The notes beneath the pieces are model-generated. The model was not told the origin of the DNA, did no database searches, and worked only from the letters and a program-made list of their open reading frames with translations. A stretch of 61,436 nucleotides of DNA, the filler included. It is 4 parts of 4 records of this genome, joined end to end, with 100 filler letters (N's around TTAATTAATTAA, not from the genome) between each part and the next. Parts side by side here need not be neighbours in the genome. Positions count along the whole stretch, not along the records: positions 35,903 to 53,217 come from SRR31156797_13000; 3 more parts are not named here. The stretch is one strand, 5' to 3'. Both the position numbers and the translations under genes were made by a program. Of the stretch, positions 27,014 to 52,998 are shown one piece after another (positions within the stretch are counted from its first letter, which is position 1; each line of letters begins with the position of its first letter).

Positions 27014-27113
27014 NNNNNNNNNNNNNNNNNNNNNNNNNNNNNNNNNNNNNNNNNNNNTTAATTAATTAANNNNNNNNNNNNNNNNNNNNNNNNNNNNNNN
27101 NNNNNNNNNNNNN
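27014..27113. other. Artificial contig linker
   Basis: N44-TTAATTAATTAA-N44, which gives stop codons in all six frames. Confidence 0.99.
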
Positions 27114-35802: not shown

Positions 35803-35902
35803 NNNNNNNNNNNNNNNNNNNNNNNNNNNNNNNNNNNNNNNNNNNNTTAATTAATTAANNNNNNNNNNNNNNNNNNNNNNNNNNNNNNNNNNNNNNNNNN
35901 NN
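35803..35902. other. Artificial contig linker
   Basis: N44-TTAATTAATTAA-N44. Confidence 0.99.
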
Positions 35903-36100
35903 TCTTAACGAAAAAATATAAACGACTCTGATTCTCAAAATTGGAAATTGCATCATGTTATTAAATCCGCTAGCATTCCTTTTCTATATTATTAAAATGA
36001 TTTCGTATATTAACAGGCTAATGAGAATGTTACATTGATAAAGCTAAAATAGTTTTTTTCACAGGAGCAAGGATTAATCCTGACACAAATTTAGCACATC

Positions 36101-36231
36101 TTTTAACGGTTGAAGTAAACTACAAGGCGATAATTTGAAGTAAAATTTGAACTATTATTAAAAGTTACTGTTCACTTACAAATTTAATATTACCGAAGTA
36201 TAGCCTTGTTAGTTTCTCTGACTTGTTAGAC
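36101..36231 (-). mobile_element. attC: Integron attC recombination site (131 bp)
   Basis: Minus strand: R'' GTCTAAC, 5-nt spacer, AGAGAAAC-TAACAAGGC ... GCCTTGTA-GTTTACT, 6-nt spacer, R' GTTAAAA. The palindrome is imperfect, with extra bases on the left arm. It lies 35 bp after the GNAT stop. Confidence 0.8.
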
Positions 36232-36266
36232 AATTGCCAACTAGTGACAACTCGCAGTAAACTATT

Positions 36267-36851
36267 TTAGTCTTTTTTTTCATTTATAAAATATGGTTTT
36301 ATCATTTTGATACTATCTAGCTCTTGATTCTCTTCTATTGCAAAAAATAAATTATCCTCATAAAATGATATAACCTCTTTTATATTTATAGAATCTAAAA
36401 GGATAAACCTACCACCTAAGTAGATTTGAGCATTATCTATTATTTCAATAGCATCTTCTATTATAAATTGACCTATTTTAACATCTTTGTATAAGTCTGA
36501 TTTGCCTAATTGACCGATTAAAAAACATGGTATGGATTTTGTGTTATCTCTATATCCATCTAAAAGTTTTATAACTTCTGCTGAAATATTGTCTGTATAA
36601 AGTGTGTTTATAGCTATCGTAAAATAAGCTACTATATTTTTTGTATCGTTGTCAATATAGAGATATGTTCTTGATCTTAGATTTTTTTCAAATACTAAAG
36701 CTTTATTATGTAAAAAATCTTGCAAGTCTAGGTTTTGGTCACATTTAAAAGTTTGTAATAGTTTTTTGATTTTATTATTAGAAGTTGAGTTTTCTATTAT
36801 TTCAGATAAACTAAAACAAGAAAAATCATCATCAAATTTATTTCTAGTCAT
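36267..36851 (-). CDS. GNAT acetyltransferase, TacT/AtaT toxin-like
   Basis: FKCDQNLDLQDFL, VAYFTI, PCFLIGQLGKS, GGRFILLDS, FYEDNLF motifs. Confidence 0.75.
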   Translation of the reverse strand: MTRNKFDDDFSCFSLSEIIENSTSNNKIKKLLQTFKCDQNLDLQDFLHNKALVFEKNLRSRTYLYIDNDTKNIVAYFTIAINTLYTDNISAEVIKLLDGYRDNTKSIPCFLIGQLGKSDLYKDVKIGQFIIEDAIEIIDNAQIYLGGRFILLDSINIKEVISFYEDNLFFAIEENQELDSIKMIKPYFINEKKD

Positions 36852-36865
36852 TGACGATAATTTAT

Positions 36866-37036
36866 TTAAAAAATATCACTTACTGATAGTTTTCTTTTAT
36901 GAACTTGTTTTAAATTAGCTCTTTTTGTAGCATTGTAAGTTTTTACTTTTTTTAAACTTTTTTGTGAAAAAGCATTCATTATTAACTTTTCACTTTCAGT
37001 TTTTATAATCATCGGTTCTAAAAATGCTTTTGTCAT
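36866..37036 (-). CDS. Unannotated 56-aa basic protein, putative antitoxin (MTKAFLEPMIIKTESEKLIMNAFSQKSLKKVKTYNATKRANLKQVHKRKLSVSDIF)
   Basis: Read by hand. Strong AGGAAAGG RBS, upstream TAAAAT, ends 14 bp before the GNAT start. Confidence 0.7.
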   Translation of the reverse strand: MTKAFLEPMIIKTESEKLIMNAFSQKSLKKVKTYNATKRANLKQVHKRKLSVSDIF

Positions 37037-37099
37037 ATTGTGCCTTTCCTTTGTATTTATTACTTCATTTTATCTATTATTTACTTTAAATTACTTAAA

Positions 37100-37789
37100 T
37101 TAATAATAGTAACTTCTTATCTCTTGCTCCATTTCAAATCTCATTGCTTCTTCATAGTCATGAATTATATCATTTGACATTTGAATATAATGATCTAGCC
37201 ATCCATCAACACCCCATAATAAATCATGAACTTCTTCCATAATTTTTGATATATTTTTTAAATCAAATTCTTCTTTATTAGGAAAACTTAGTTTTTTATT
37301 AGTACCAGTATAATAACGAAATCTCTGTCCATTTGTATCCATATCATACATTTGTTTTATATACTTTTTAATATCATTTGGAAAAGTTTCATTGGAAACT
37401 AAATTTAATCTTTCTATAAATAATTCAAATAAATCGTACAAATTATGTGTATCATCCAAGTTATCACTAATTTTTTCAGATAATGTACCATTTTCTAAAT
37501 ATCCCAAAGTGTCCATTTTTTCATATAGAAGTTCTGCTTCTATAATTAAACTTTTTAGATGTAATTCGAGATAGTGTCTATAATTATAACAAATAGGATA
37601 AAAAAGAGTATCTTTTTTATAAGTACCGCTTTGTTCACTAATTGCAATAGTAGTTAATTCTTTGGCTGATTCATAATAACCATTGATATAAGTATATCTA
37701 GTATGGTTATAACCACCAACTGTAGCAGAATGTTTCATATCTTTAATTGAAGCTTTTTTGAATAGTTTCTTTTTCATTTTGTTATCCAT
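37100..37789 (-). CDS. HEPN-like domain protein
   Basis: YPICYNYRHYLELHLK ... THNLYDL ... RFRY matches the HEPN-type E-x-x-L-K / H-x-L / R-Y pattern. Confidence 0.6.
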   Translation of the reverse strand: MDNKMKKKLFKKASIKDMKHSATVGGYNHTRYTYINGYYESAKELTTIAISEQSGTYKKDTLFYPICYNYRHYLELHLKSLIIEAELLYEKMDTLGYLENGTLSEKISDNLDDTHNLYDLFELFIERLNLVSNETFPNDIKKYIKQMYDMDTNGQRFRYYTGTNKKLSFPNKEEFDLKNISKIMEEVHDLLWGVDGWLDHYIQMSNDIIHDYEEAMRFEMEQEIRSYYY

Positions 37790-37790
37790 T

Positions 37791-37830
37791 GTCTAACTAT
37801 TTATTAAATATACATTGTATATAACATACC
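37791..37830 (-). mobile_element. attI-like site
   Basis: Minus strand: ATTTAAT (degenerate L box), 5-nt spacer AAATA, GTTAGAC (R box). A further ATGTTATAT lies upstream. There is no palindromic partner arm. Confidence 0.5.
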
Positions 37831-38006
37831 TTTAAATATGAAAATAAATATACATAAAAAATGTTGTTTTATTTTTACTTTATAAAGCCTGTAAATAAGC
37901 TATTTCCAAAATTTGTCTAATCAAAAACATTACTTAAGATTCTATTTGTTAAGCTTATTTTTATTTTAAGACCCTGTTTTTATGTATAGTTTACATAGGA
38001 ATATCG

Positions 38007-38066
38007 GTAATAAAACTACATTTTGTATATTTATTTGTACAAAATCGTAATAAAACAACATTATGT
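38007..38066. repeat. 20-bp direct repeat with a 40-bp period, plus an inverted partial copy at 37861-37873
   Basis: GTAATAAAACTACATTTTGT at 38007 and GTAATAAAACAACATTATGT at 38047. ATGTTGTTTTATT at 37861. Confidence 0.7.
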
Positions 38067-38345
38067 TGGTTTTTATATTAAATTAAGCAATTCTATCTAA
38101 AAATAATAAAATTAAATCTAAGCTAAATTTAATTTTATGACAGTAGTTATAACATACGTCTTAAATAGTCTTATATAAGGAAACTGTTGTATGAACTTCA
38201 ATATGTTAAGCAAGATATTCTTACTAGTGTATTTCAAAGAATACATGATGTAATACAATCAAAAAAATTATATTTATTACCTCTTGCTATAGAATTTACG
38301 ATAAAATAAGAAAAACTAGAACAAAATTATACGAAGATAAAAAAT

Positions 38346-39035
38346 CTAAACATCCCTAACATCCACAAACCCACCACTATCAAACTTATCAATTCCTTGA
38401 ACCAACTTATCCATCCTAATAACAGCCTCTTCAGCACTCTGAATCTCCCCATCTTTTAATCTCTTCGCACTAGGAAACTCACTATCATCTATCTCAAATC
38501 GTATCACATCAGTCATAGGAGTCTCAATCACCCCAGGAGCTACCGCTAAAAGTTTTGTGTCCATCATCTCTTTTGAATATAAGTTTAGTAGCATATTAAG
38601 TCCAGCTTTTGAAAGGGAATAACTCGCCCAACCTTTTGAGCCATTTTTTGCTGCACCTGAGGAGATGCCTATTATAGTTTTTACTTTTATTGTGGCTAGG
38701 ATATCTAGAAGCGCTTTGTTTGCATAGACGTTTAGATTGTACACTTCTTGGAGTTCTTCTACACTTACTTCTAGTGAGGATTTTATCTCTCCTAACATTC
38801 CTGCGTTTAGATAGACTAGATCAAGTTGTTTTATACTTTTTATAAACTCCCCTAGCCCACTTTTGATTTGATCTACAAGTGAAAGATCAAAGCTTTTAAA
38901 GATAAAGTTTGGATCTTTTATATCTGGAGTTTTTCTACTGATACCATATACTGTATAGCCTTGTTTTAAATAATATTGAGCCAGTGCCAATCCAAATCCT
39001 GAGCTACATCCTGTAATAAGTATATTGTTTTCCAT
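38346..39035 (-). CDS. SDR oxidoreductase (sepiapterin/benzil reductase-like; likely ATG at 39035)
   Basis: ITGCSSGFG, LNAG, ISSGAA, YSLSK, PGVIETPM motifs. Confidence 0.88.
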   Translation of the reverse strand: MENNILITGCSSGFGLALAQYYLKQGYTVYGISRKTPDIKDPNFIFKSFDLSLVDQIKSGLGEFIKSIKQLDLVYLNAGMLGEIKSSLEVSVEELQEVYNLNVYANKALLDILATIKVKTIIGISSGAAKNGSKGWASYSLSKAGLNMLLNLYSKEMMDTKLLAVAPGVIETPMTDVIRFEIDDSEFPSAKRLKDGEIQSAEEAVIRMDKLVQGIDKFDSGGFVDVRDV

Positions 39036-39152
39036 TATTCCTTCCAATCTTTTTTCTTACGATAGCCAATTTTTTCTTAGGCGAAAGAAACTATCTTGAC
39101 AAAAAAAACTCTATTGTTGTACAATGTACTACTTAATAAAAAAGGATATTCC

Positions 39153-40172
39153 ATGAAAATTGAAAGTTCTAATGTGATTATGCAGTCAAATCTAGAAGCT
39201 GAGACAAAGCACTCCTCTTCTGTGGTGAAGTTTGAACTATTTCATGGATTATCAGAGTTAAAGGAGAATGCTTATAAGGCTCATGTGGCAACTGAATTGC
39301 TTTTAAGTACTGATTTTTCATCCCAAAACACTAAAGCACTCTATGCTTATGATAATCAGATGGGTGCACAAGATAGATGTAAAAAGCAAGTGATTGAAAA
39401 TATTATGGGGATGTTTTTTACTAAGGATCAAGATATATTTACTTATCCTGTAAAAAATAGTGATATGGAAGAAAAGCTTCAAGATAGTGCTATGATCATT
39501 GAGACAACTGAAGAGTATTATCAAAAGCAAACCATTGATTTTGATACTTTTTTAGAGATTAGAACTCCTACAGAGCATTATACTATGGATTTGGAGATTA
39601 GTTTTACTCAAGAGTTATATGAAGCTCACCATATGGAACTAAAGCTTGGGAATAGTGCTTTTTTAGATCCACTTGTGATCAATTACGATGATGATATCAA
39701 TCCTTTTGATAATCTCTCCTCTTTAAAATTTGAATTTGATTTAAATAACGATGGGGAAGATGACCTTATACCACTTCTAAAAAAAGGGGCTGGTTTTTTA
39801 GCGTATGATAAAAATGAAAATGGCAAGATAGATAACGGCTCTGAGCTTTTTGGACCAAATACCAATGATGGATTTGGAGAATTATCACAGCATGATAGTG
39901 ATGGAAATAACTGGATCGATGAAAATGATGCTATTTTTAATAAACTAAAAGTATGGCAGATCAATGAAGAGGGAGAGAATCAACTGGTCTCTTTACTTGA
40001 TCTAAACATTGGAGCTATCTATCTTGGTGAAGTACAAAGTGGATTTACTTATCAAAATAGTATCGAAAAAGTGGATGCCTTACAAAAAAGCAATGGGGTG
40101 TATGTGAAAAATGATGGCTCAGGAGCTAGAATGATCAATGCTCTAGATATCGCTTTACAAACTAATAGTTAA
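39153..40172 (+). CDS. Hypothetical protein with Ca-binding DxNxDG motifs
   Basis: DPLVINY, FDLNNDG, DKNENGKIDNGSELFG, DSDGNNWIDEND. AAGGA RBS before ATG at 39153. Confidence 0.7.
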   Translation: MKIESSNVIMQSNLEAETKHSSSVVKFELFHGLSELKENAYKAHVATELLLSTDFSSQNTKALYAYDNQMGAQDRCKKQVIENIMGMFFTKDQDIFTYPVKNSDMEEKLQDSAMIIETTEEYYQKQTIDFDTFLEIRTPTEHYTMDLEISFTQELYEAHHMELKLGNSAFLDPLVINYDDDINPFDNLSSLKFEFDLNNDGEDDLIPLLKKGAGFLAYDKNENGKIDNGSELFGPNTNDGFGELSQHDSDGNNWIDENDAIFNKLKVWQINEEGENQLVSLLDLNIGAIYLGEVQSGFTYQNSIEKVDALQKSNGVYVKNDGSGARMINALDIALQTNS

Positions 40173-40212
40173 AAAACATTCGCTATACTTCCAGAAAATA
40201 TAAAGTAAAAAG

Positions 40213-42054
40213 ATGTTCATACCAACTACACAAGAAGAATTACAAAACCTAGGCTGGAGCCAACTTGATATTATCTTAGTTAGCGGAGATACGTATATAG
40301 ATTCTCCATATAGCGGTATGTCTATCATTGGTCAGCTTTTAATACAACAAGGTTACCATGTAGGGATCATCGCTCAACCTGATTATGAAAGTGATAAAGA
40401 TATCACAAGATTAGGTGCGCCACAGCTTTTTTGGGGAGTAAGTTCAGGTCTTGTAGATAGTATGGTAGCTAATTACACTGCATTGAAAAAGTTTCGAAAC
40501 TCCGATGACTTTACCCCTGGGGAGAAAAATACCAAACGACCTGATCGAGCTACTATCGTGTATAGTAACCTTATAAGAAGATATTTTAAAGATACCGCTC
40601 CAATTGTTTTAGGTGGGATTGAAGCGAGTCTTAGACGTGTGGCACATTATGATTTTTGGTCAAACAAAGTACGAGGATCAATCCTTTTTGATGCAAAAGC
40701 TGATTATCTTATCTATGGGATGGGTGAAAAAACAGTACTTGAACTAGCAAGTGCATTAAAAGAACAAAAAGATCCAAATGATATAAGAGGACTTTGTTAT
40801 ATTTCAAAAGAAAAAAATGAGAAGTATATAGAGCTTCCTACTTTAAAAGAGGCTCAAGATAAAAACGATAAAACAAAATTTATAGAGATGTTTCATCTTT
40901 TTTATGAAAATAATGACCCACTCACTTCAAAAGGTCTCATCCAAGAACACAATGGACGATATCTTATCCAAAACCCACCACAGTTTTATATGGATGAAAA
41001 AGAGATAGATAATGTGTATGATCTTGCCTTTGAAAGAGAAGTTCACCCATATTATGCAAAAGATGGAAGAGTAAAAGCGATGGAGACTATTCGCTTTTCG
41101 GTAACTACACACCATGGGTGTTATGGGGAGTGTAACTTTTGTGCGATCTCAGTGCATCAAGGAAGAACCATACGGAGTCGAAGTGAACGCTCTATTTTAG
41201 ATGAAGTAAAAGGTTTTACACAAAATCCAAAATTTAAAGGAACTATTAGTGATGTGGGTGGAGCTACCGCTAATATGTATGGATATGAATGTACTAAAAA
41301 ACTTGACAAGGGAGTTTGTGATGATAGAAGATGTACAGGCTTTCGTATGTTTAATCCAAACAATCGTAAAAAAGAGTGGGACAATTATAAGATCTGTCCA
41401 GTACTCAAACCGAACCACCAAAGAAATATCCAGCTTTTAAAAGATATAAGAGCAATTGATGGGGTCAAAAAAGTCTTTGTAAACTCAGGGATTCGATATG
41501 ATCTTATCAATGAAGATACACAACATGGGGAAGAGTATTTAAAAGAGATTGTAAGTCATCATGTAAGTGGGCAGATGAAGATAGCCCCAGAACATAGTGA
41601 AACAAAGGTGTTAAAATATATGGGAAAACCATCAAAAGATGTGTTGACAGATTTTAAAGCAAACTTTGAAAAACTCTCTCATAAAAGTGGGAAAAAACAG
41701 TTTCTGACCTATTATATGATCGCAGCCCATCCTGGGTGTAGTGAACAAGATATGAAAGATCTCAAAGAGTTTGCCAATAAAGATCTAAAGCTTAATCCTG
41801 AACAAGTACAAGTCTTCACCCCTACCCCATCTACTTATTCTACTTTGATGTATTATACTGAGCTTGATCCTTGGAGTATGGAAAAGATATACGTGGAAAA
41901 AGATCCACTGAAAAAACAGAAACAAAAAGATATAGTTACAGATAAACATACAAGTAAAACTTATAACTCAAAAGAGAACAAAAGTAATAAAAATAGAAAT
42001 TTTTCAGGAAAAAAGCGTTATAATAACAGTCACAAAAAATATGATTCAAGGTGA
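40213..42054 (+). CDS. ygiQ: YgiQ (UPF0313) radical SAM protein
   Basis: SGDTYIDSP, GGIEASLRR, CYGECNFC, QVQVFTPTP motifs. Confidence 0.92.
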   Translation: MFIPTTQEELQNLGWSQLDIILVSGDTYIDSPYSGMSIIGQLLIQQGYHVGIIAQPDYESDKDITRLGAPQLFWGVSSGLVDSMVANYTALKKFRNSDDFTPGEKNTKRPDRATIVYSNLIRRYFKDTAPIVLGGIEASLRRVAHYDFWSNKVRGSILFDAKADYLIYGMGEKTVLELASALKEQKDPNDIRGLCYISKEKNEKYIELPTLKEAQDKNDKTKFIEMFHLFYENNDPLTSKGLIQEHNGRYLIQNPPQFYMDEKEIDNVYDLAFEREVHPYYAKDGRVKAMETIRFSVTTHHGCYGECNFCAISVHQGRTIRSRSERSILDEVKGFTQNPKFKGTISDVGGATANMYGYECTKKLDKGVCDDRRCTGFRMFNPNNRKKEWDNYKICPVLKPNHQRNIQLLKDIRAIDGVKKVFVNSGIRYDLINEDTQHGEEYLKEIVSHHVSGQMKIAPEHSETKVLKYMGKPSKDVLTDFKANFEKLSHKSGKKQFLTYYMIAAHPGCSEQDMKDLKEFANKDLKLNPEQVQVFTPTPSTYSTLMYYTELDPWSMEKIYVEKDPLKKQKQKDIVTDKHTSKTYNSKENKSNKNRNFSGKKRYNNSHKKYDSR

Positions 42055-45000
42055 CATTATTGAAATTTAGATCTTTTTTACTATTGATTTTATTTACTCT
42101 TAGCACCTTTGCCAATGAAAACTTAGAAAAGATATCCTTACAGCTCCTTTGGAAACACCAATTTGAATTTGCTGGCTTTTATATGGCAAAAGAGAAAGGG
42201 TTTTACAAAGATGTTGGACTTGATGTTGAATTTAAAGAGTTTGATTTTGGTACAAATATTGTCTCTGATGTAGAAAAAGGGATCAGTACCTATGGTATTG
42301 GGTATCCAAATATTATTTTAGATAGATCAGAAGGTGCAAAGATCACTTTAATAAGTGCTATTTTACAATCTTCTCCTCATGTATTTATCTCACTAGAATC
42401 ATCAAATATCAATTCAATCAAAAACTTTAAAAATAAAAAAGTGATGATAGAAAGTGATGTAATTAGAACCGCTCCACTTTTAAGTCTTTTATATTCTCAA
42501 AATATTAAACTTGATGATATCCAAACTATACCGCCATCTTTTAATATGGATGATCTTATCAATGGAAAAGTAGATATCTATTCAGCTTTTATATCCAATG
42601 AAGTCTATAAACTCCAGCAAAAAAACATCCCTTATAAAGTATGGGATCCAAAAGATTATGGCTTTGATTTTTATAATGATATTTTATTTACTTCAAATAA
42701 AGAGATACAAAATAATCCAGCACGGGTAAAAAAGTTTCGAGAAGCGAGTCTGAAAGGTTGGGAATATGCTTTTAACAATCTAGAAGAAACCATAACACTT
42801 ATCTTAAACAAATACAATACCCAAAACAAAACAAAAGAAGCGTACCTTTATGAAGCAAAAGAGTTAAAAAAACTTGCTTTTTTAAATAACACTCCATTAG
42901 GAGATATTGATACTACAAAAATACAAAGAATAATAGATATTTATAACCTCATAGGACTAACTCATACACCTATAGATCTTGATTCTTTTATTTATGATCC
43001 AGATCAACAAAAAATATTATTAACTCCACAGGAGAAAGCTTTTTTAAAAAACAATCCAACTATTACAATTCACAATGAAAAACATTGGGCTCCTTTTAAC
43101 TTCAATGAAGAAAATACTCCAAAGGGGTACTCTACAGATTATATAAAACTATTAGCTCAAAAACTAGGACTTCGAACAAACTTTATTAGTGGTCCAACAT
43201 GGTCTGAGTTTTTAACTTTAATGAAACAAAAGAAAATAGACATAATGTTAAATATCGTTCATGATAAAGACAGAGAAGAATATATTGAGTTTACAAGACC
43301 ATATCTTAAACACACCAACTCACTCTTTACAAACTTAGACAATATCCACTCATTAGATGATCTAAAAAATAAATCAGTAGCGGTACCAAAAGATTTTTAT
43401 CTTGAAAGTTTTTTACAAAAAAACTATCCTGATATCACAATAGATACATATAAAAACATTCCTGAGTGTCTCTATGCTGTAATTGAAGGAAAAAGTGATG
43501 CAGTGATTGCCAATTTTGCTGTTGCTAATTATATTTTAAAAAAACATAACCTCTCTATAAAAAATATCAAACTCAATATTGATCAAAGATTGAATTTTGA
43601 TCTTAGACTTGGTGTTTCAAAACAAAAAGCGATCTTAAAAAATATTTTAGAAAAAGCTATGGATACAGTCACCCAAGAGGAACTTACGGCACTTTCTAAT
43701 AAATGGCTTGGTAGCCTTAATAACTCAGTGATCAACAATCTTAAACTCACTCCCTTAGAAAAAAAATATTTAGAAACAAAAAAACATATCACAATGTGTA
43801 TCGATCCAAATTGGATGCCTTTTGAAAAATTTGAAAAAAATAAACACATTGGAATCAGTGCAGATTATTTTAAAATCTTTCAAGAGTCTTTAGGGAAAAA
43901 AATAGAGGTGATCCCAACAAATACGTGGTCACAGTCTTTAAAATATGCACAACAAAGAAAATGTGATCTTCTCTCTTTAGCGATGGAAACACCAAAAAGA
44001 AAAGAGTATATGAACTTTACTTCCCCATATCTTAGTGTCCCTCTTGTTGTTGCGACCAATACAAAAGTAACTTTTATCAATGATGTAAAAGCTTTAAAAG
44101 GAAAAAAAGTAGGAATCCCTAAAGGATATGCCTTTGTTGAGATCTTTAAAGAAAAATATCCCTATATCAATATCATCGAAGTCCCTACTTTAAAAGAGGG
44201 ACTCCAACAGGTAAAAGAGGGAAAACTTTTTGGATATATTGGAACGCTTGCTTCTGTTGGATATATGTTTCAAACTGAGTTTACAGGGGAGCTTAAAATC
44301 GCAGGAAAGTTTGATGAACTTTGGGAGCTTGGGATTGGGGTAAGAAATGATGATATTATATTACTTGGGATCATGCAAAAGCTTGTGGATAGTCTTAATA
44401 CTGAGACAACACAAAACATCCTTAATAACTGGCTAGCAATCAAATATGAACAAAAAGTTGATTATAAGTTTTTATGGCAGATTTTAGCTATCGTTGCAGT
44501 GGTCTTATTTTTATTTATCTACCGACAATATATCCTTTTCCAATCTAATAAAAATCTTCAAGCAATAGTTGATGAAAAAACAAAAGAGCTAAAAGAGCTT
44601 AATAAAGATCTTGAACAAAAAGTAAAAGATTCAGTCGTTGAGATTAGGCAAAAAGATCAAATTCTTTATGAACAATCAAAAATGGCAGCTATGGGTGAGA
44701 TGATAGGAAATATATCTCATCAATGGAGACAGCCTTTAAGTATCATCAGTACAGCTGCTAGTGGAATCAAAATGAAACTAGAATTTGGACTATTTAAAAA
44801 AGAGGATGATGTCAAATCTCTTGATGCTATTACTGATGCAAGTATCTATCTATCACAAACGATTGATGACTTTAGAAACTTTTTAAAACCAAATCAAGAA
44901 AAAAAATATTTCAATGTAAAGGATATCATTGAAAAGCTCCTTTCTATGTTTGGAAGTAGTTTCCAAACCAATAATATAGAGATTATTTTAGAGACTCCTG

Positions 45001-45386
45001 ATTGTAAGATCCTAGGAAGTGAAAATGAACTGTTACAAGTGTTAATTAATATTCTAAATAACTCAAAAGATGCTTTTAAAGAAAAAGATATCAAAGAGAG
45101 TAAATTTATTTTTATCACTTTAAATATACTTCATGATCATATTGTGATCTCTATTAAAGACTCAGCTGGAGGGATCGATCCAAAAGTGATATCAAGTATT
45201 TTTGAACCGTACTTTACAACTAAACATAAAAGTGTGGGTACTGGAATTGGTCTGTATATGAGCTACCAGATCATTCGAAATAAATTTGATGGAAACATTC
45301 TAGCTTCTAATAAGACCTTTGAATATAATGAGCAGACATTAAAAGGAGCAGAGTTTGAGATAATATTACCTCTTACTCATACTTAA
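42051..45386 (+). CDS. Sensor histidine kinase with an NMT1/THI5-like domain and two family-3 substrate-binding domains
   Basis: WKHQFEFAGFYMA, WAPFNF and WMPFE domains, TM helix, SHQWRQPL H-box, GTGIGLYMS. Confidence 0.9.
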   Translation: MTLLKFRSFLLLILFTLSTFANENLEKISLQLLWKHQFEFAGFYMAKEKGFYKDVGLDVEFKEFDFGTNIVSDVEKGISTYGIGYPNIILDRSEGAKITLISAILQSSPHVFISLESSNINSIKNFKNKKVMIESDVIRTAPLLSLLYSQNIKLDDIQTIPPSFNMDDLINGKVDIYSAFISNEVYKLQQKNIPYKVWDPKDYGFDFYNDILFTSNKEIQNNPARVKKFREASLKGWEYAFNNLEETITLILNKYNTQNKTKEAYLYEAKELKKLAFLNNTPLGDIDTTKIQRIIDIYNLIGLTHTPIDLDSFIYDPDQQKILLTPQEKAFLKNNPTITIHNEKHWAPFNFNEENTPKGYSTDYIKLLAQKLGLRTNFISGPTWSEFLTLMKQKKIDIMLNIVHDKDREEYIEFTRPYLKHTNSLFTNLDNIHSLDDLKNKSVAVPKDFYLESFLQKNYPDITIDTYKNIPECLYAVIEGKSDAVIANFAVANYILKKHNLSIKNIKLNIDQRLNFDLRLGVSKQKAILKNILEKAMDTVTQEELTALSNKWLGSLNNSVINNLKLTPLEKKYLETKKHITMCIDPNWMPFEKFEKNKHIGISADYFKIFQESLGKKIEVIPTNTWSQSLKYAQQRKCDLLSLAMETPKRKEYMNFTSPYLSVPLVVATNTKVTFINDVKALKGKKVGIPKGYAFVEIFKEKYPYINIIEVPTLKEGLQQVKEGKLFGYIGTLASVGYMFQTEFTGELKIAGKFDELWELGIGVRNDDIILLGIMQKLVDSLNTETTQNILNNWLAIKYEQKVDYKFLWQILAIVAVVLFLFIYRQYILFQSNKNLQAIVDEKTKELKELNKDLEQKVKDSVVEIRQKDQILYEQSKMAAMGEMIGNISHQWRQPLSIISTAASGIKMKLEFGLFKKEDDVKSLDAITDASIYLSQTIDDFRNFLKPNQEKKYFNVKDIIEKLLSMFGSSFQTNNIEIILETPDCKILGSENELLQVLINILNNSKDAFKEKDIKESKFIFITLNILHDHIVISIKDSAGGIDPKVISSIFEPYFTTKHKSVGTGIGLYMSYQIIRNKFDGNILASNKTFEYNEQTLKGAEFEIILPLTHT

Positions 45387-46411
45387 TCCCAGATATTTAC
45401 GTCTTCACCTTTTGCTCTAATCTTATTGGCTCTTTGGGTAAGATATCTTTGAAACTCTTTTTCCTCTTTATACGCTCCACTTACCACATAATCAACAATT
45501 GATTGAAAGTGGAAAGTTTTAAACATCGCTTCTATACGAATCACTTCCCCTCCAAACTCATTGAAAAATATGATCGTAGGACTATTGGTAATGGAAAGCT
45601 CCTTTGCCCAATCTTTTATCTTGATAATGATCTTGCTTGGAGTGACAATGGATTTGTCTGAATCTAGATCTACTTGATAAAGATCAATCTTTTTTAAAAG
45701 CTCACGTGATAGTGAATCTTTTAAAAGTGTGTTATGTAAAGTTTTACACCCTTCACAATTTGCTGATTCAAAAAATACTGCAAATTCACCACTCCCTTTT
45801 TTTCTTATAAAATTACTTGTGTCTTTAAAAAGATCAGGTTCAGCTATAAGTGTCTCTTTTGATTGAAGCTCCATCTTTTGTACTAGATACTCTTTGTAAG
45901 ATATTTTATTTTCTTGTTTTGTTGACACATAATCCAATGCCACATTGAATTTTTGGGTATTTAAGTATCCATTTAGTCTTAATACTTGATTTGCTTGCTC
46001 ATCAAAAAAGAGTATGGTTGGAGTAAATTGTACATTATACTTTAAAGCAAACTCTTTTTCAGTATATACTTCTCCATCCACATCAGTCACTTCTTTACTT
46101 CCAAACATATTAATATCAACTATAGCAAAGTCTTTTAAGATCTTTTGCTTCGTTGTTTGATCCTCTAAGTTTTTAGTCACAAACCTATGACAATATGGAC
46201 AATTTGGCTGATGGATAAAGACTATAAGTCTTTTATTTTGAGTTGCTAATTCTGTTACATCCTCTTTAAGATCTAAAAAACTACTCATAAACCATGATGG
46301 CATTTTTACATCTTTAGCTCCTAAGAATTTCCCCTCTTTTACTTCTGCATTTAAAAAAGAAAAAGAGATTAAAATGATAAACAGAGTTATCAATAAACTT
46401 TTTGCTTTCAT
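45383..46411 (-). CDS. Exported tandem thioredoxin-fold protein (SoxW-like; likely ATG at 46411)
   Basis: Signal peptide, CPYC...FTPT and CEGC...NSPT domains. Confidence 0.8.
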   Translation of the reverse strand: MKAKSLLITLFIILISFSFLNAEVKEGKFLGAKDVKMPSWFMSSFLDLKEDVTELATQNKRLIVFIHQPNCPYCHRFVTKNLEDQTTKQKILKDFAIVDINMFGSKEVTDVDGEVYTEKEFALKYNVQFTPTILFFDEQANQVLRLNGYLNTQKFNVALDYVSTKQENKISYKEYLVQKMELQSKETLIAEPDLFKDTSNFIRKKGSGEFAVFFESANCEGCKTLHNTLLKDSLSRELLKKIDLYQVDLDSDKSIVTPSKIIIKIKDWAKELSITNSPTIIFFNEFGGEVIRIEAMFKTFHFQSIVDYVVSGAYKEEKEFQRYLTQRANKIRAKGEDVNIWD

Positions 46412-46575
46412 TGTTTTTTCCTCCCTCTTTACTCTTGCTTTACACATCTTAGAGCAATCGATCTTATAAGGAGAAAAATAAAAAAACTTAATAGAAAATT
46501 TAAAATTTCTCTTACCTTCATATAGGTAAAACTATGCTATAATGCGCCAATCTTAATGAAAATAGGAAATGATAA

Positions 46576-47493
46576 ATGTTATATACTTGTGGACACAAAA
46601 TTCCAGATAGTGATTCTATTGTTGGTGCCATTGCAATGGCTTATTTACAAAAAGAGCTTGGAAATGAGACAAAAGCTGTAAGACAAGGGGATATCAATCC
46701 TGAGTCGCAATATATATTAGATAAATTTTCGTTGCAAGCACCTGAGCTTAAAACATCTTTTGCAGGAGATGATCTTTTTATGGTTGATTATAACAACTAT
46801 ACAGAGGGTCCAGATGATCTTAAAGATGCAAATATTATAGGGATTGCAGATCACCATAAACTTGGAGGTCTTAGCACTTCAGCACCACTTGAAGCATGGA
46901 TCAGACCTGTTGGATGTTCAAACACTATTATTAAAGAGATGTTTGATTATTATGAAGTAGAGATCCCAAAAGATATCGCAGGAGCAATGATGTGTGCGAT
47001 ACTTTCTGATACAGTTATCTTCAAATCTCCAACATGTACTAAGATTGATACAAAAATCTGTAAAGAATTAGCTACAATAGCTGGTATTGAAGATTTTAAA
47101 TCAGTTGGTATGGAGATGTTCAAAGTAAAATCTGCTGTTGATGGAGTTCCAGCAAGAGAACTTGTAAAAAGAGATTTTAAAAACTTTGATATGTACGGAA
47201 AAAAAGTTGGAATCGGTCAACTTGAAGTAGTTGATCTTTCTATCTTTGATGAAAGAAAAGATGAGTTATTAGCTGATATCAAAGCTTTAAAAGAAGAAGA
47301 TGGTTGTGATACAGTTCTTTTACTTTTAACAGATATTATTGCTATGGGTTCTCAAATCCTTGTAGCCACAGATTCACTTGACGTGATCGAAAAAGCTTGG
47401 GATGTAAAAGTTGAAAATGATCAATTTTGGCTTCAAGGGTGTTTAAGTAGAAAAAAACAGATCGTACCATTCTTAGAACCAGCATTTAAATAA
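46576..47493 (+). CDS. ppaC: Mn-dependent inorganic pyrophosphatase (family II)
   Basis: GHKIPDSD, DHH, ILSDT, SRKKQ motifs. Confidence 0.95.
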   Translation: MLYTCGHKIPDSDSIVGAIAMAYLQKELGNETKAVRQGDINPESQYILDKFSLQAPELKTSFAGDDLFMVDYNNYTEGPDDLKDANIIGIADHHKLGGLSTSAPLEAWIRPVGCSNTIIKEMFDYYEVEIPKDIAGAMMCAILSDTVIFKSPTCTKIDTKICKELATIAGIEDFKSVGMEMFKVKSAVDGVPARELVKRDFKNFDMYGKKVGIGQLEVVDLSIFDERKDELLADIKALKEEDGCDTVLLLLTDIIAMGSQILVATDSLDVIEKAWDVKVENDQFWLQGCLSRKKQIVPFLEPAFK

Positions 47494-47504
47494 AAAGGGA
47501 TTGA

Positions 47505-48692
47505 ATGAAAGGGAAATATAAACAACTTTTTATCGATAAAGAGGCAGTTGCCACTCTTGCTATGGCAAGGGATGGACTTCTTAAACCTGTAACAAAACTG
47601 ATGAATAAAAAAGAATCAGATGAAGTGAATGAAACAGGAAGATATAAAGGGAGTTTATTTCCATTTTCATTTATTCTTGCACCCTCTGGAAAAAGAAATA
47701 GTGAAGTTCTCAAATCAGCTAAAAAAGGGGAAACTCTAGAGCTTATTTGTGATGGGAAACTCTCAGGTACAATTATTGTAGATGAGATCTTTGCTATTGA
47801 TAAAGAAAAAAGGGTTGAAAAGATCTATGGGACAAACTGTTCAGCTCATATTGGAGTAAAAGATACTTTAAAACGTCTTGGAGATTTAGCTGTTTGTGGT
47901 GAGTATACTGTTGAGTATACAAATATTCAAAAAAATATACAAAACACTAAAAGCACTATAGAAGAACTTGAAGCTAAAAACATCTCTGCAATTATCCTCT
48001 CTGGAAAACCATTCCATAGAGTCCATGAAAGATTAATTAGAACTGCTTTGGTAAAATGCGACCTTCTTATTATCTTTTTACAAAAACCATATCATGATGA
48101 TAGTGAACTTACCTATAGAGTAAGACACAAAACTCTACAATACTTTGTAGACAACTTTGTACCCAAAGATAGAGTTCTGCTTCTTCCTTTAGAAAATACC
48201 TATATCTTTGGTGGGATCAATGAACTTACTCTAAACGCAATTGTTTCTAAAAACTATGGAGCAACACGACTCCTAATAGGACAAAACCATGCGGGACTTG
48301 GAGCATATTGGGATCATAACAAACTTCTCTCAATCGTAGATACTTTAAAAGATATTGATATCACTATAGAGATCGTAAGTGAATTTGTATATTGTGATAA
48401 ATGCACTACCTTAGTAAGTACAAATGCCTGCCCTCACGGAAGTCATCACCATGTAAAATATCATAATGAATCTATTATGGAACTCTTTCGTTTAGGGATC
48501 ATCCCACCTGCTATTTTGATGAGAAAAGAGATCTCTTCTATTATTTTAAGTGAGCTCTACCCATCAAGAAAAGAGACTCTACAACGAATACACCAAAACC
48601 TCTCCACCTCATCAGGGGTAATCGATACTTTTGAGAGTGCAGATTTTTATGATGGATTGATGAATCTTTATCAAACTTCCTCTTTAACATAA
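47505..48692 (+). CDS. ATP sulfurylase-like protein (divergent)
   Basis: PUA-like N-domain, PFHRVHE, IGQNHAG, CDKC...CPHG zinc site. Confidence 0.75.
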   Translation: MKGKYKQLFIDKEAVATLAMARDGLLKPVTKLMNKKESDEVNETGRYKGSLFPFSFILAPSGKRNSEVLKSAKKGETLELICDGKLSGTIIVDEIFAIDKEKRVEKIYGTNCSAHIGVKDTLKRLGDLAVCGEYTVEYTNIQKNIQNTKSTIEELEAKNISAIILSGKPFHRVHERLIRTALVKCDLLIIFLQKPYHDDSELTYRVRHKTLQYFVDNFVPKDRVLLLPLENTYIFGGINELTLNAIVSKNYGATRLLIGQNHAGLGAYWDHNKLLSIVDTLKDIDITIEIVSEFVYCDKCTTLVSTNACPHGSHHHVKYHNESIMELFRLGIIPPAILMRKEISSIILSELYPSRKETLQRIHQNLSTSSGVIDTFESADFYDGLMNLYQTSSLT

Positions 48693-48699
48693 TACCCCT

Positions 48700-49938
48700 A
48701 TGTCGTCACTCCCTTTGTTTAGATCTAATAAACAAAGGGGTTTGTTTTTCCTAATAGCTTGTTTTATTTTTTCCCTGAATCTTTTTATAGAGTTTCATCA
48801 CTATCAAAAGATAACCAAAGACGAGGTATATAAAACCAATGCACTTATTAAAAATATCTACTATAAAGAAAAATACGATATTTTAAAACTCCAAACTGAT
48901 CACTTTACTTTTTTTACTTCCATTAAAAAAGATCAAAACTATACTAAACTTCAAAAGATAAATCTCTATTTTTTAACCACACAAATAAGTTTTCTTGAGT
49001 ACTTAAAAGGATTTTATACCCATAGTTTTCAAATCAAACCATACCCTGTGGAAACAACACTTAAAAACACTTTTTATGATTTTATAGATTCTCAACATTC
49101 TAATAAATCTATCGCTTCACTTTATAATGCACTCTTTCTTGCTGTCACTCCAGATGAACTCATCAGAACATTTACAGCAGAGTATGGAATAAGTCACCTT
49201 ATTGCTATCTCAGGCTTTCATCTTGGAGTGATGAGTATCGTCCTTTATTTTTTACTCTCTATTTTTTATAACCCTATCCATCAAAAATACTTTCCATATA
49301 GAAATAAAAGATTTGATATCTTAGTGCTTAGTAGCATTATACTCTTTAGTTATCTTGTATTTTTAGATTTTGTACCCTCTTTACTTCGGGCATTTACAAT
49401 GCTGCTTTTTGGACTTATTATGCTTAGAAGTAATATAAAGATACTCTCTTTTGAAACACTTTTATGGGTCGTGATAATTATACTAGCACTTTTTCCAAAG
49501 CTACTTTTTTCACTCTCACTTTGGTTTAGTGTAGCTGGAGTATTTTATATCTACTTATTTTTATACTATTTTAAAAACCTTAATAAATATCTCCAGCTGA
49601 TATTTTTTAACTTTTGGATCTATTTAGCGATGAATCCTATTGTTCACTACTTTTTTGCTACCACTTCTTATGAACAACTCATCTCACCAATACTCACTCT
49701 TCTTTTTACAATCTTTTATCCACTAGCACTTCTACTACATCTTTTAAGTCTGGGTGATCTATTTGATTCTTTTTTAGAATCTATTTTGAGTATTTCGATT
49801 GAGTCATTTGATAAGGCAACCCTATTGCCAATATTTATAGGATATATTGGAGTAAGCTTATTTTCGATCTATTCGAAAAAAGCTTTTTTTCTATTAAATG
49901 GAACTATTGTAGTTTTTACACTCTATCTTTTTATATAA
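48700..49938 (+). CDS. comEC: ComEC/Rec2 competence membrane protein
   Basis: GISHLIAISGFH, PSLLRA, multiple TM helices. Confidence 0.9.
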   Translation: MSSLPLFRSNKQRGLFFLIACFIFSLNLFIEFHHYQKITKDEVYKTNALIKNIYYKEKYDILKLQTDHFTFFTSIKKDQNYTKLQKINLYFLTTQISFLEYLKGFYTHSFQIKPYPVETTLKNTFYDFIDSQHSNKSIASLYNALFLAVTPDELIRTFTAEYGISHLIAISGFHLGVMSIVLYFLLSIFYNPIHQKYFPYRNKRFDILVLSSIILFSYLVFLDFVPSLLRAFTMLLFGLIMLRSNIKILSFETLLWVVIIILALFPKLLFSLSLWFSVAGVFYIYLFLYYFKNLNKYLQLIFFNFWIYLAMNPIVHYFFATTSYEQLISPILTLLFTIFYPLALLLHLLSLGDLFDSFLESILSISIESFDKATLLPIFIGYIGVSLFSIYSKKAFFLLNGTIVVFTLYLFI

Positions 49939-50680
49939 AAGAGTCTATATATTTATCAAGAGTATATTTCATATCCTCATCAAGATCAGCCATATTTGAT
50001 CGCATCCATTGAAGATACCCTATATCCTCTTTTGCTACTGCTGCTATCTCTTGCCCTTTATATTTTCCAAATCGAAATTTACTAATAAGAACTGGGGTTT
50101 GAGTAAGCTCCGCTAATTTTTCTAAAGGATCATAATCGGGATAGGTACTTGTACATTTTTTTACAAGCTCTCGTAAAAATAACTTCATCACTAAGACATC
50201 ACCTATAGCATCATGGGCTTTTATTGTGATCCCAAGACTCTCTGCCTCTTGTGCTTCTGTTTGATACAGATTTAGAGCATATCTTAGATATTGTAATCTA
50301 TGATATGGAAGCTCAGAATAAAGATGCTTGGCACATCTTAGAGTATCGATAGTAGTATAATGGTTTTCAAACCCCTCTTTTACAAGCATCCCCATATCAA
50401 AGTTTATATTATGAGCGATTAGATAATTACTAGGATCATTAAGCTCCAATAGTTTTTTATAAAACTGTGTCTCGATACAAAGCCCTTTATCCTCTATCAT
50501 ATTAGGAGTAATATTATGCACTTCCATTGCTTCAAGTTTTATATCAATATCTGGATTACAAAACTCATCATATACTTCTATATCACTTTTATTGTGGATA
50601 ACCATTCCGCCTACTTGAATGATTCTATCTTCAGCTGCATTTCCTGTTGTCTCTGTATCAAATAAAATATATTTCGCCAT
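49931..50680 (-). CDS. DEDDh 3'-5' exonuclease (ExoX-like)
   Basis: FDTETTG, AHNINFD, AHDAIGD, C-terminal FGKYKG. Confidence 0.9.
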   Translation of the reverse strand: MAKYILFDTETTGNAAEDRIIQVGGMVIHNKSDIEVYDEFCNPDIDIKLEAMEVHNITPNMIEDKGLCIETQFYKKLLELNDPSNYLIAHNINFDMGMLVKEGFENHYTTIDTLRCAKHLYSELPYHRLQYLRYALNLYQTEAQEAESLGITIKAHDAIGDVLVMKLFLRELVKKCTSTYPDYDPLEKLAELTQTPVLISKFRFGKYKGQEIAAVAKEDIGYLQWMRSNMADLDEDMKYTLDKYIDSFI

Positions 50681-50748
50681 TTTTTACTTCCTTATAATTT
50701 TGCTTTATCGTTTACTCAAATTTGTTAGAAAATTATAAGAGTAAAATT

Positions 50749-50797
50749 GCCTTCGCTATATAAATCAAAGATTTACATAAAGCTCAGTCGAGTCGGC
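50749..50797. repeat. REP-like palindromic element
   Basis: Minus strand: CTGAGC-TTTATGTAAATC-ttt-GATTTATATA-GCGAAG. Confidence 0.4.
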
Positions 50798-50798
50798 T

Positions 50799-50825
50799 AA
50801 AAAACCTGAAGCAGTTCAGGTTTTT
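50799..50825 (-). terminator. Terminator after dnaB
   Basis: AAAAACCTGAA-gcag-TTCAGGTTTTT. Confidence 0.8.
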
Positions 50826-50845
50826 CTTTACACCTTTGTCCCTTT

Positions 50846-52342
50846 TTAAAAAATATCTGGAATATCCACATCCATAGGAGCAGGAGCTTCATTTGGCTTA
50901 GGAGGCTCTGGAATATCCACATTGGTTTCTTTACTTGTATCTACTGACTCAAAAGTGGTCACCACTGGAGGCTGACCAAAAGGAGATTCTTTATCCACAA
51001 ACTTCGTAAGCTCTTTATGAAAGTCAAGCTTCACTGTTCCAGTTGATCCATTTCTTTGCTTTCCTATGATGATCTCAGCTTCTTCTACTGGCTTATTGAT
51101 AAACGCACTCTTATAAGGAGGATCATCTCCCCTATCAATTGATTCTTTCTCTTTTCTTTGCTCATCTCTTTCTTTATAGATATCATCACGATATACAAAC
51201 ATAATAATATCCGCATCTTGCTCGATCGCTCCAGATTCCCTGATATCACTAAGCATCGGTCTCTTATCAGGACGACCTTCAAGTCCCCTATTAAGCTGAG
51301 AAAGTGCTACGATTGGGATATCCATCTCACGTGCAAGAAGTTTTAATCCCCTACTAATCTCATCTACTACAAGTCTTCTATCTGTTCCACCTGTTCCTGA
51401 CATAAGTTGGAGGTAATCCACGATAATGATTTTTACATTATTGTCTTTATTTTGCGCTATTTTTCTTGCCCTTGCACGTAGTTGATTAATATTTACACTT
51501 CCTGTATCATCTACAAAAAGTTTTTTATCTTGGAGACCATCAAAAGCTTTTTCCACTTTTTTTGCTTGGTCTGGATCAAGCTCCCCTTTTCTTACATTTT
51601 GTAAAGGAACTCCACTTTTTGCACTTACTAACCTTATCATCAATTGCGTCTCAGGCATCTCTAGTGAGAAGAAAATCACACCAGCACCACTTTCAAGGTT
51701 TTTCAATGTTGTATTTAAAACAATAGAAGTTTTTCCCATCGCTGGACGCGCTGCAATAATAACTAGATCACCTCCATTAAATCCTGTGGTTTTTCTATCA
51801 AGTGCTTCAAATCCAGTAGTTTGTCCTGTAAGATAACTATTTCCTCTCTCAGACATTTTTTTAATATGCTCTTTTGTCACTTGGATAATAGATGGCATAT
51901 CTTTTAGCTCACTACTTGCACTATCAGTTGAAATCGCATAAAGTTCATTTTGTACTTTATCCACTGCATCTTGAGCAGAGATAGCATCTTCTGAAGTGAT
52001 CTTTTTAATATGTGTAGCTAATGTAGCAAGTTCCCTTTTAACTGAACTATCTTTTATCTCTTTGACATAAGACATAATATTAGCAATTGGATTAGCTGAG
52101 AGGATCTCAACAAGAACAGAATCACTTACTTCTTTTGGATCAAGTCTTTTTCTTATAAAGTCTTCATCAATAGGGATATCTTCATAATTCAATTTTGCCA
52201 TCACATCAAACACTTTTTGATGAGCAGGAAGATAAAAATCACTTGGCTTTAATACCCCAAGGATATCTTCTATAATTTCATGGTCAAAAAGGATTGAGCT
52301 TAAAACTGCTCTTTCGATATTTAGTGCGTAGATATTATCCAT
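50846..52342 (-). CDS. dnaB: Replicative DNA helicase
   Basis: AARPAMGKT, VDYLQL, ESGAIEQDAD, KQRNG. A charged insertion after YRDD is typical of Campylobacterota. Confidence 0.97.
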   Translation of the reverse strand: MDNIYALNIERAVLSSILFDHEIIEDILGVLKPSDFYLPAHQKVFDVMAKLNYEDIPIDEDFIRKRLDPKEVSDSVLVEILSANPIANIMSYVKEIKDSSVKRELATLATHIKKITSEDAISAQDAVDKVQNELYAISTDSASSELKDMPSIIQVTKEHIKKMSERGNSYLTGQTTGFEALDRKTTGFNGGDLVIIAARPAMGKTSIVLNTTLKNLESGAGVIFFSLEMPETQLMIRLVSAKSGVPLQNVRKGELDPDQAKKVEKAFDGLQDKKLFVDDTGSVNINQLRARARKIAQNKDNNVKIIIVDYLQLMSGTGGTDRRLVVDEISRGLKLLAREMDIPIVALSQLNRGLEGRPDKRPMLSDIRESGAIEQDADIIMFVYRDDIYKERDEQRKEKESIDRGDDPPYKSAFINKPVEEAEIIIGKQRNGSTGTVKLDFHKELTKFVDKESPFGQPPVVTTFESVDTSKETNVDIPEPPKPNEAPAPMDVDIPDIF

Positions 52343-52420
52343 AAAGTAGTTAGATCACCTTGTTTTTTATTAGAAGAGTGATTATACCAAAAGCTTGGTA
52401 AAAGAGGAGTTTTATAAAAT

Positions 52421-52522
52421 CTATTTGATAGTAAAATTGTGAGGTTTAGAGATCACATATATACCATAAGCCATTACAGCAAAAACACCAATGATACCAA
52501 CAATTCCTACTAGTTCATTCAT
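52421..52522 (-). CDS. Unannotated 33-aa single-TM peptide (MNELVGIVGIIGVFAVMAYGIYVISKPHNFTIK)
   Basis: Read by hand. ATGAATGA overlaps the upstream stop, GGAG RBS, hydrophobic helix. Confidence 0.6.
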   Translation of the reverse strand: MNELVGIVGIIGVFAVMAYGIYVISKPHNFTIK

Positions 52523-52775: not shown

Positions 52776-52998
52776 TATGAACCTCATATATAATTTTTTA
52801 ACTATACCATTTAAATTCAGTTCTTTGAAAAAAGATTGCAAACTGTAATATTTTAAAATTTTTTACTCTAACCTTTAATTTTCCTTTTATTTATTTTATA
52901 ATTCATTTATTTTATAATAATTGTAGTATTATAACATTTAATGATAGTTAAATTCCAAACTTGGAATAACTTCTATACTTTTTTACAAAGGAAATCAG

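Follow-up and report, generated by a model that had tools for sequence, protein, structure and literature searches.

A stretch of DNA of 61,436 nucleotides (nt) from a Campylobacterota draft genome, referred to here as the window, carries near the start of one of its four contigs three genes enclosed by what look like integron recombination sites. A sequence-only reading of this DNA described the segment as an integrated gene cassette of 1.69 kb, lying between an attI-like site and an attC and encoding a HEPN-like protein (P1), a small open reading frame (ORF; P2) and a GNAT toxin (P3), and suggested that the three genes make up one undescribed defence or addiction system. The locus thus raises two questions: whether the segment is an integron cassette, and whether its genes belong to a single system. 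The features concerned are the following, with a slash marking the crossover point.

36107-37796, minus strand: integrated cassette, 1690 bp between two G/TT crossovers; its first bases are TTAGAC and its last is the G of the attC R' box
37789..37100, minus strand: P1, an ORF of 229 amino acids (aa), whose conserved start is probably at 37777
37036..36866, minus strand: P2, an ORF of 56 aa
36851..36267, minus strand: P3, an ORF of 194 aa
36101..36231, minus strand: attC, 131 nt, with R'' box GTCTAAC, spacer, L stem with bulged bases, variable centre and R' box G/TTAAAA

Our answer, which we hold with good though not full confidence, is that this is the first cassette of a Campylobacterota-type chromosomal integron that has lost its integrase gene, intI, at this locus, and that the cargo is a composite of P1 and a toxin-antitoxin (TA)-like module, P2-P3.

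On the coding strand, an attC consensus has a gene-proximal R'' box, RYYYAAC, and a distal R' box, GTTRRRY. The window has GTCTAAC at 36231..36225 and GTTAAAA at 36107..36101 on the minus strand, which is the coding strand; these motifs, like the GTTAGAC ahead of P1, are present where the sequence-only reading had placed them. They agree with the consensus at 36101-36231 except that the final base of R' is A and not Y, which is tolerated because TTAAAA is part of the neighbouring cassette. To compare this element with its relatives, we collected the loci of P3 homologues with their flanks from one genome per species, giving 36 loci (loci and genomes carry L and G numbers below). In the closest relatives, whose P3 is at least 87% identical, the DNA 3' of P3 retains a conserved ...TTGGCAATTGTCTAACAA. 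In four of these loci (L001, L002, L034 and the window), P3 is followed by an element of ~130 nt (169 nt in L002) that terminates in CGTTA; no similarity extends past this point. A hidden Markov model (HMM) of these P3-flanking elements detected full-length copies away from P3, at L015 96-223 and L002 1195-1326, on the same strand and 1-2.5 kb off. After iteration with nhmmer, 11 full-length copies of the family were found in 99 sequences (534 kb), which bears out the expectation that further attC copies would exist. The family is ~131-136 nt long in Campylobacterota relatives, and its ends, TAAC...GTTA, are invariant in all ten aligned members.

The aligned family has the structure of an attC. 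In its consensus, an outer stem of 4 bp and an inner stem are separated by an unpaired spacer, giving 15 pairs in all, and compensatory changes were observed in seven of them. The paired state was found in 94% of cells, compared to 40-46% when the partners were slid, and the covariation score was 0.335 compared to 0.10-0.16 in the slid controls. The R''-L'' arm is longer than the L'-R' arm by 1-2 nt; according to PMC2727003, this asymmetry defines the extrahelical bases of attC sites. A lineage-specific covariance model was then built from nine relatives' sites, with the window site excluded, and was run with filters off. It matched 36101-36231 on the minus strand at full length with 54.5 bits (E-value 1.3e-9), whereas the runner-up in the 61-kb window scored 14.8 bits and the plus strand of the attC site only 18.5 bits. 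Comparison with relatives thus confirms 36101-36231 as a genuine attC, and the 131-bp palindrome was correctly recognised as having attC geometry.

Further observations concern the attCs of related loci. The attC that follows P3 is broken off after 16-36 nt and continues into unrelated DNA at L015 2687-2722, at L004 5618-5642 and 1629-1661, and at L045 ~2756-2775; in L015 the DNA beyond the broken site holds core ABC-transporter genes. The attC that follows P3 is often the place where array ends or rearrangements break. A classic MNT-HEPN TA pair, consisting of a nucleotidyltransferase (Polbeta/NTP_transf_2) and a HepT-like RNase, is encoded by a neighbouring cassette in L015 (94-1018), which ends in a short attC of 57 nt that the long-attC model still scores at 33.8 bits.

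At the other end of the segment, the question is whether the sequence ahead of P1 is an attI. The region in question and the DNA beyond it are as follows.

37797..38087, minus strand: attI region, with the conserved core ...TTTAAAG..ATACAATGTATATTTAATAAATAG; crossover between 37797 (G) and 37796 (T)
38088..38345: AT-rich spacer at the place expected for intI, without an integrase remnant; a short-chain dehydrogenase (SDR) gene comes next

The window from 37793 to 38087 is 79% identical over 298 nt to L043 1985-2278, a stretch that abuts a degraded intI (G002:C47). We aligned six such regions, from the window, the start of L002, L043, L042, L039 and L037, the last four of which lie beside intI or an intI pseudogene. 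The common block stops at AATAAATAG/TTA (...TTAATAAATAG/TTA), and each sequence then diverges into a different first cassette. By its homology to the attIs found beside intI, the site upstream of P1, previously called attI-like, is a true attI. The upstream GTTAGAC was also considered as the end of another attC, and this was rejected because the sequence preceding it is unlike the attC family and matches attI regions.

The integrase gene was sought in the window and in the relatives. Homology between the window and its relatives ends where their intI 5' region begins. TIGR02249, the curated model for integron integrases, exceeded its cut-off in three of the five genomes of relatives that were searched and in none of 14 control genomes. 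The gene is intact in G002 (413.7 bits), is cut by a contig end in G001 and is present in G005 as three copies with in-frame stops. On G005:C15, the opposite strand beyond an intI pseudogene (one in-frame TAG) carries an attI with five attCs of the same orientation within 3.8 kb; four of the five attCs were outside the training set of the covariance model. Judged by these comparisons, the window locus is an attI with cassettes whose integrase gene was deleted at this locus. Its attI and attC sequences are lineage-specific. A motif, AAAACAACATT / AATGTTGTTTT, occurs three times in direct and inverted orientation between the attI and the former position of intI (37846-37873, 38007-38026 and 38047-38066). 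It is kept in the intI-attI spacers of the relatives and is a candidate binding site for the integrase or a regulator.

If the segment is a cassette, its two ends should match each other. The six bases just past the upstream crossover are cassette sequence and are expected to complement the cassette's own R'', and the circular form restores the R''/R' pairing. The exact complementarity between GTTAGAC and R'' that had been pointed out is present, and it extends over 10 nt (GTTAGACAAT and ATTGTCTAAC) rather than 7. From the base composition of the window, and for a 30-nt target, the chance expectation is ~0.0015 for the 7-mer and ~6e-5 for the 10-mer. GTTAGAC occupies 37797..37791 on the minus strand and was said to lie one base ahead of the first ORF, which is correct for the ATG at 37789. 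Most P1 homologues start at the second ATG, 37777; this is probably the start of P1, and in that case GTTAGAC lies 13 nt ahead of the ORF and not 1.

The same relation between cassette start and R'' was observed in the relatives. The first 6 nt are perfectly complementary to the cassette's own R'' in seven of the nine cassettes examined. These are the window cassette (TTAGAC with GTCTAAC), the first cassette of L002 (attI-G/TTATGC with GCATAAC), the second cassette of L002 (TTAGAC with GTCTAAC), the first cassette of L039 in G005 (attI-G/TTATCC with GGATAAC), the L051 cassette (TTAGAT with ATCTAAC), a cassette of L015 with a 263-aa ORF and a cassette of L045. In the remaining two, the MNT-HepT cassette of L015 and L052, the match is 5/6. 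The frame TTAGAC...GTCTAAC is also present in L002, L015 and L045. A further locus, L053, carries a P1 copy that matches the window P1 in two segments, 94.5% and 98% identical, and its cassette start is the same as that of the window from GTTAGACAATGGATAA on (GTTAGAC). The L053 start is preceded by an attC (R'' GCATAAC...) and not by an attI, which shows that one unit has come to sit at two different kinds of integron site, each time joined at G/TT. Collectively, these comparisons confirm that 36107-37796 is a genuine integron gene cassette at an attI without an integrase, as the 1.69-kb integrated cassette signature had indicated.

The opposing explanation is that there is no integron here: the palindrome would be a terminator or a repetitive extragenic palindrome (REP)-like element, and an ordinary TA island would happen to be flanked by an inverted repeat, which would account for the 7-10-nt complementarity. 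Several results weigh against the integron reading and on the side of this one. The lone fold of a 146-nt stretch has no extra stability over shuffles (z-scores of -0.97 and -1.43 for the minus and plus strands), so that the folding check proposed by the sequence-only reading failed on both strands and the palindrome is convincing only through its relatives, by covariation and the leave-one-out covariance model. A leave-one-out HMM built on sequence alone gave the window attC an E-value of 0.013. With default filters, the covariance search returned 9 matches and missed known members, including the minus-strand element of the window, and we therefore relied on the filter-off runs. No integrase was detected in the 61 kb of the window when the intact IntI of L037 served as tblastn query (E <= 1e-3). 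Lastly, the P2-P3 modules of more distant relatives have no attC-like element downstream. On the other side stand the leave-one-out match itself, the arrays of the same element beside intI, the homology of the upstream site to attI, the start/R'' rule and the recurrence of the cassette start in the second context of L053. The palindrome as a terminator was rejected, as the terminator scan of the locus gave no terminator-like sites, and Rfam gave no match to 35903-39000 at E <= 1. We therefore give the explanation without an integron almost no credence.

Under the integron reading, the anatomy of the locus suggests how the segment would have arrived. The integron integrase would have recombined the folded bottom strand of the cassette attC with the double-stranded attI at G/TT. 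The product would be attI-G/TTAGAC-(P1-P2-P3)-attC (R'' GTCTAAC ... R' G/TTAAAA), followed by the next cassette. Given IntI in trans, the cassette could still excise or move. The three genes would share one attC probably through the loss of an intervening attC or through recombination inside cassettes, with P1 as a stand-alone HEPN-like unit and P2-P3 as an autonomous two-gene module. The most likely role of that module would be addiction that stabilises the array, and a role in phage defence is possible.

We then asked whether the three genes form one system. In that alternative, P1-P2-P3 would be one tripartite defence or addiction system in which a HEPN effector is coupled to a GNAT protein and its small partner, mobilised as one cassette. 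The genes in the window share one attC with none internal. The same gene order is found in L045 and L046, where P1-P2-P3 and the attC R'' end together, the attC being complete in L046 and cut after ~16 nt in L045; this trio counts against a composite of independent units and may indicate a functional link of P1 with P2-P3. The same start is found in L053, where the deletion in P1 strips its most conserved motif, as might befall a costly effector, and L003 retains a 28-aa C-terminal P1 remnant beside P2. Against one system, 35 of the 36 genome loci have P2-P3 but lack P1. Relatives of P1 with 52-55% identity each make up a one-gene cassette that has a short attC of its own and lies behind an attC in L051 and behind an attI in L050 and L052, and further relatives are lone genes with no conserved neighbour. 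P1 was matched in none of 401 sampled Campylobacteria genomes, an empty result that carries weight only with a positive control. In L002 and L015 an unrelated 263-aa ORF stands ahead of P2-P3 in the place of P1, inside the TTAGAC...GTCTAAC frame. The conserved P2-P3 block has its own upstream region, beginning ~45 nt ahead of P2 and past the stop of P1. Since P2-P3 occurs without P1 and P1 occurs elsewhere in single-gene cassettes, the locus is read as a composite of two independent units and not as a three-gene system. The cassette is most likely, on the gene neighbourhoods compared, a composite of a P1 unit and a P2-P3 unit. A single tripartite system appears improbable, and the proposal that the three genes form one undescribed system did not survive the comparison, even though the search for the same unit elsewhere succeeded (the L053 start behind an attC and the trio in L045 and L046).

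Other ORFs were observed next to P1 in the relatives. In L045, a lipoprotein-like ORF and P1 both stand ahead of P2-P3 in the TTAGAC...GTCTAAC frame. Lipoprotein-like ORFs of 169-183 aa overlap the P1 start at L045 668-1219 and at L047 3502-4011, where P2-P3 is absent, and may represent a recurrent P1 partner. In L046, an ORF at 3583-3999 abuts P1 upstream.

What the P2-P3 module does was approached through P3. A predicted structure of P3 (predicted local distance difference test score, pLDDT, 87.7) was searched with Foldseek. Ranks 1-35 were the toxins AtaT, TacT, KacT and GmvT together with an entry titled only 'bacterial toxin' (ranks 1-4), with E-values down to 9.7e-11 and TMt 0.72-0.79; ordinary acetyltransferases ranked lower. 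A P3 profile searched against the PDB matched solved GNAT toxins with an E-value of 3.8e-6. The residue Y164 of P3 is invariant and aligns with the Tyr of FYE/FYL in GmvT and AtaT2, which we take to be the catalytic residue from the PDB titles of Y144F/Y145F mutants and from general knowledge. The FxC and PxxxxG motifs of P3 also align with GNAT toxins. Together, the model and alignments strongly support a GNAT fold closest to the tRNA-acetylating toxins AtaT, TacT, KacT and GmvT, and the label of GNAT toxin given to this gene is well founded in fold, PDB profile and Tyr alignment. P3 has an N-terminal extension of ~30 residues compared to known GNAT toxins and is acidic, with an isoelectric point (pI) of 4.8. 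Its family comprises 708 clusters at 50% identity (E <= 1e-10) and is nearly unannotated; among 20 distant relatives, Pfam gave weak GNAT matches in 2.

P2 is strongly basic (pI 10.3). All 33 evaluable rows have a small ORF immediately ahead of the P3 homologue; one frameshifted copy is counted twice among them, and three rows without upstream room, two of them with a P2, were omitted. The 33 rows include records from Helicobacter, Selenomonadaceae, Christensenellaceae, Riflebacteria and spirochaetes. The P2-type ORFs are 55-78 aa long, start with MT[KEQ]A... or MAT..F, and abut or overlap the start of the P3 homologue. Searches of P2 against Pfam and the PDB gave chance-level rows only, and P2 with 13 homologues gave no DUF1778 match at E <= 0.1 and no PDB antitoxin at E <= 10. 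In place of the canonical adjacent DUF1778 (ribbon-helix-helix, RHH) antitoxin there is thus a different conserved small ORF. The earlier assignment of the small ORF as the partner of the GNAT protein agrees with the conserved synteny, and the ORF is not a canonical DUF1778 antitoxin. Conserved synteny is the one line of evidence that suggests a partner role for P2 and binding between P2 and P3. P2 is most likely a putative antitoxin or regulator of P3. In L004 (G005), two P2-P3 copies lie ~4 kb apart with identical flanks (839-1604 and 4816-5582), and one P3 is frameshifted.

A TA pair is, however, not the only way to read this module. P3 could be a housekeeping-type or regulatory acetyltransferase that modifies a protein, possibly P2, or a small molecule, so that the pair would have a physiological role. 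Typical tRNA-binding GNAT toxins are basic and come with DUF1778 antitoxins, and the charge pattern of P2 and P3 is the opposite. With P3 acidic and P2 very basic, the TA reading and a tRNA target are therefore not secure, and P2 lacks a DNA-binding or DUF1778 signature. Against a physiological role, all named entries among the 35 best structural matches are toxins, with which P3 aligns at the catalytic Tyr and in the FxC and PxxxxG motifs. The two-gene synteny, with its abutting or overlapping ORFs, is strict across phyla, and P2-P3 is patchy, multi-copy and mobile in its distribution, integron cassettes included. On balance, we find a role outside TA doubtful and prefer the TA-like reading. 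A bolder version of that reading would make P2-P3 a widespread uncharacterised branch of GNAT toxins, in which an acidic enzyme with a target other than aminoacyl-tRNA is held by a basic controller of 55-78 aa without DUF1778, and in which the trio with a HEPN effector is one integron-borne abortive-infection unit; we consider this a long shot.

The evidence on P1 comes mainly from its predicted structure. The AlphaFold model is all-helical (pLDDT 84). The family has a conserved motif, YRHYxELHLKSL, which lies in the second long helix of the model and contains R71-x5-H77; R71 never varies, and 18 of 20 homologues keep H77. The catalytic motif of HEPN RNases is Rx4-6H, to which R71-x5-H77 may correspond. 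With VIA-align, HEPN-domain proteins were 12 of the 14 best matches, with Z scores of 7.4-9.5 over ~117-142 residues, and helical bundles with Z under ~13 may match by arrangement alone, which applies to P1 as its Z does not exceed 9.5. The nearest Atlas cluster is auto-named 'HEPN AbiU2-like' (score 0.95). Pfam HEPN (PF05168) was found in 2 of 20 P1 homologues, weakly, with a best E-value of 0.0027. Other results count against the assignment. The best Foldseek rows are HEPN at an E-value of 0.25, with nothing at E <= 0.001, and the window P1 itself has no Pfam HEPN match at E <= 1 and no match to a PADLOC HEPN or Abi family. None of P1, P2 and P3 matched any family in Pfam, NCBIfam or PADLOC. 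We infer with moderate confidence from these models that P1 is HEPN-like; that label, as first given, has structural evidence of the same moderate strength and no curated HEPN match for the window protein. For P1, a role as an RNase-type effector, toxic or in abortive infection, is probable. In the P1 copy of L053 (617-1136), an internal deletion with a frameshift has removed ~residues 71-91 (RHYLELHLKSL); this copy could be an inactivated effector or could reflect an error of assembly.

The surroundings of the cassette are set by the contig structure of the window, with the following features.

27014-27113, 35803-35902 and 53218-53317: joins between the four contigs, N runs around a TTAATTAATTAA linker
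38346-39047, minus strand: SDR gene, identified with Pfam, 550 bp from attI
35903..36106, minus strand: post-attC sequence, starting with TTAAAA right after the crossover G, with 204 nt to the contig end

Because the joins are N runs between contigs, features cannot be read across them. The cassette locus lies at the extreme start of the third contig, 35903-53217 (SRR31156797_13000), ~200 nt from the contig end. Between the cassette genes and the SDR gene, upstream in gene orientation, are 550 bp of AT-rich DNA. The sequence from 36106 onward is presumably the start of the next cassette, and 35903..36106 gave no significant match among the loci fetched from relatives. A promoter scan of the locus found promoter-like sites to be no commoner than in shuffles, and we therefore make no claim on Pc or a cassette promoter.

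How does this locus compare with known systems? PMC8618304 already records integrons in Campylobacterota, describes TA cassettes as commonplace in chromosomal integrons, and states that cassettes generally hold one ORF and sometimes two. The locus shares with sedentary chromosomal integrons (SCIs), such as the Vibrio cholerae superintegron with its VCR-type attCs, and with clusters of attC sites lacking integron-integrases (CALIN), an attI with a G/TT crossover and attCs of ~130 nt that are alike within the lineage and have R''/R' boxes, an unpaired spacer and R''-L'' bulges. Like chromosomal integrons, in which TA cassettes have their own promoters, it has one cassette orientation and a TA-like cargo. 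It differs from a complete integron in that the window has no IntI beside attI, the relatives' intI being intact, stop-interrupted or degraded, and the window cassette differs from usual ones in holding three genes. In the main texts covered by our full-text search, we found no account of such arrays for Arcobacter, Sulfurospirillum or Sulfurimonas.

The cargo likewise has known counterparts. P3 shares with TacAT, AtaRT, KacAT and GmvAT the fold, the aligned Tyr, the small upstream gene and the location on mobile DNA. Unlike in GNAT/DUF1778 systems, P2 is a very basic protein of 56 aa without DUF1778/RHH, and P3 is acidic and has the ~30-residue N-terminal extension. PMC9177977 describes GNAT homologues outside the 'true TA clade' that have short divergent upstream ORFs and leaves their status open; P2-P3 fits this class as described there. 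P1 resembles AbiU2-like proteins, HepS and the V. cholerae SCI cassette 'Esos', which holds a single gene, in that it is a lone helical protein (~220 aa), has HEPN proteins as its best folds and is found in single-gene cassettes. P1 differs from stand-alone HEPN proteins in having no family match at the sequence level. In bioRxiv 10.1101/2024.07.02.601686, chromosomal integrons are described as stores of anti-phage systems, and one of the anti-phage cassette proteins reported for the V. cholerae SCI has only a HEPN-like domain; lone HEPN-like proteins of this kind, carried as integron cassettes, were thus recently shown to protect against phages.

Together, these results place the locus within a known kind of mobile element, as a new case that is well supported but fairly ordinary and that does not overturn current understanding. 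Through the comparison with relatives, it documents in detail a chromosomal integron lineage of Campylobacterota (Arcobacteraceae/Sulfurospirillum-like metagenome-assembled genomes). The attI core, the ~130-nt attC family and the short attC variants are now defined and can seed searches for cassette arrays, of which few have been described in this phylum. Loci of this kind, with an attI and cassettes minus the integrase, are missed when integrons are found through intI. The cassette also offers two testable cargoes, a GNAT toxin-like protein with a non-canonical basic partner and a lone HEPN-like protein.

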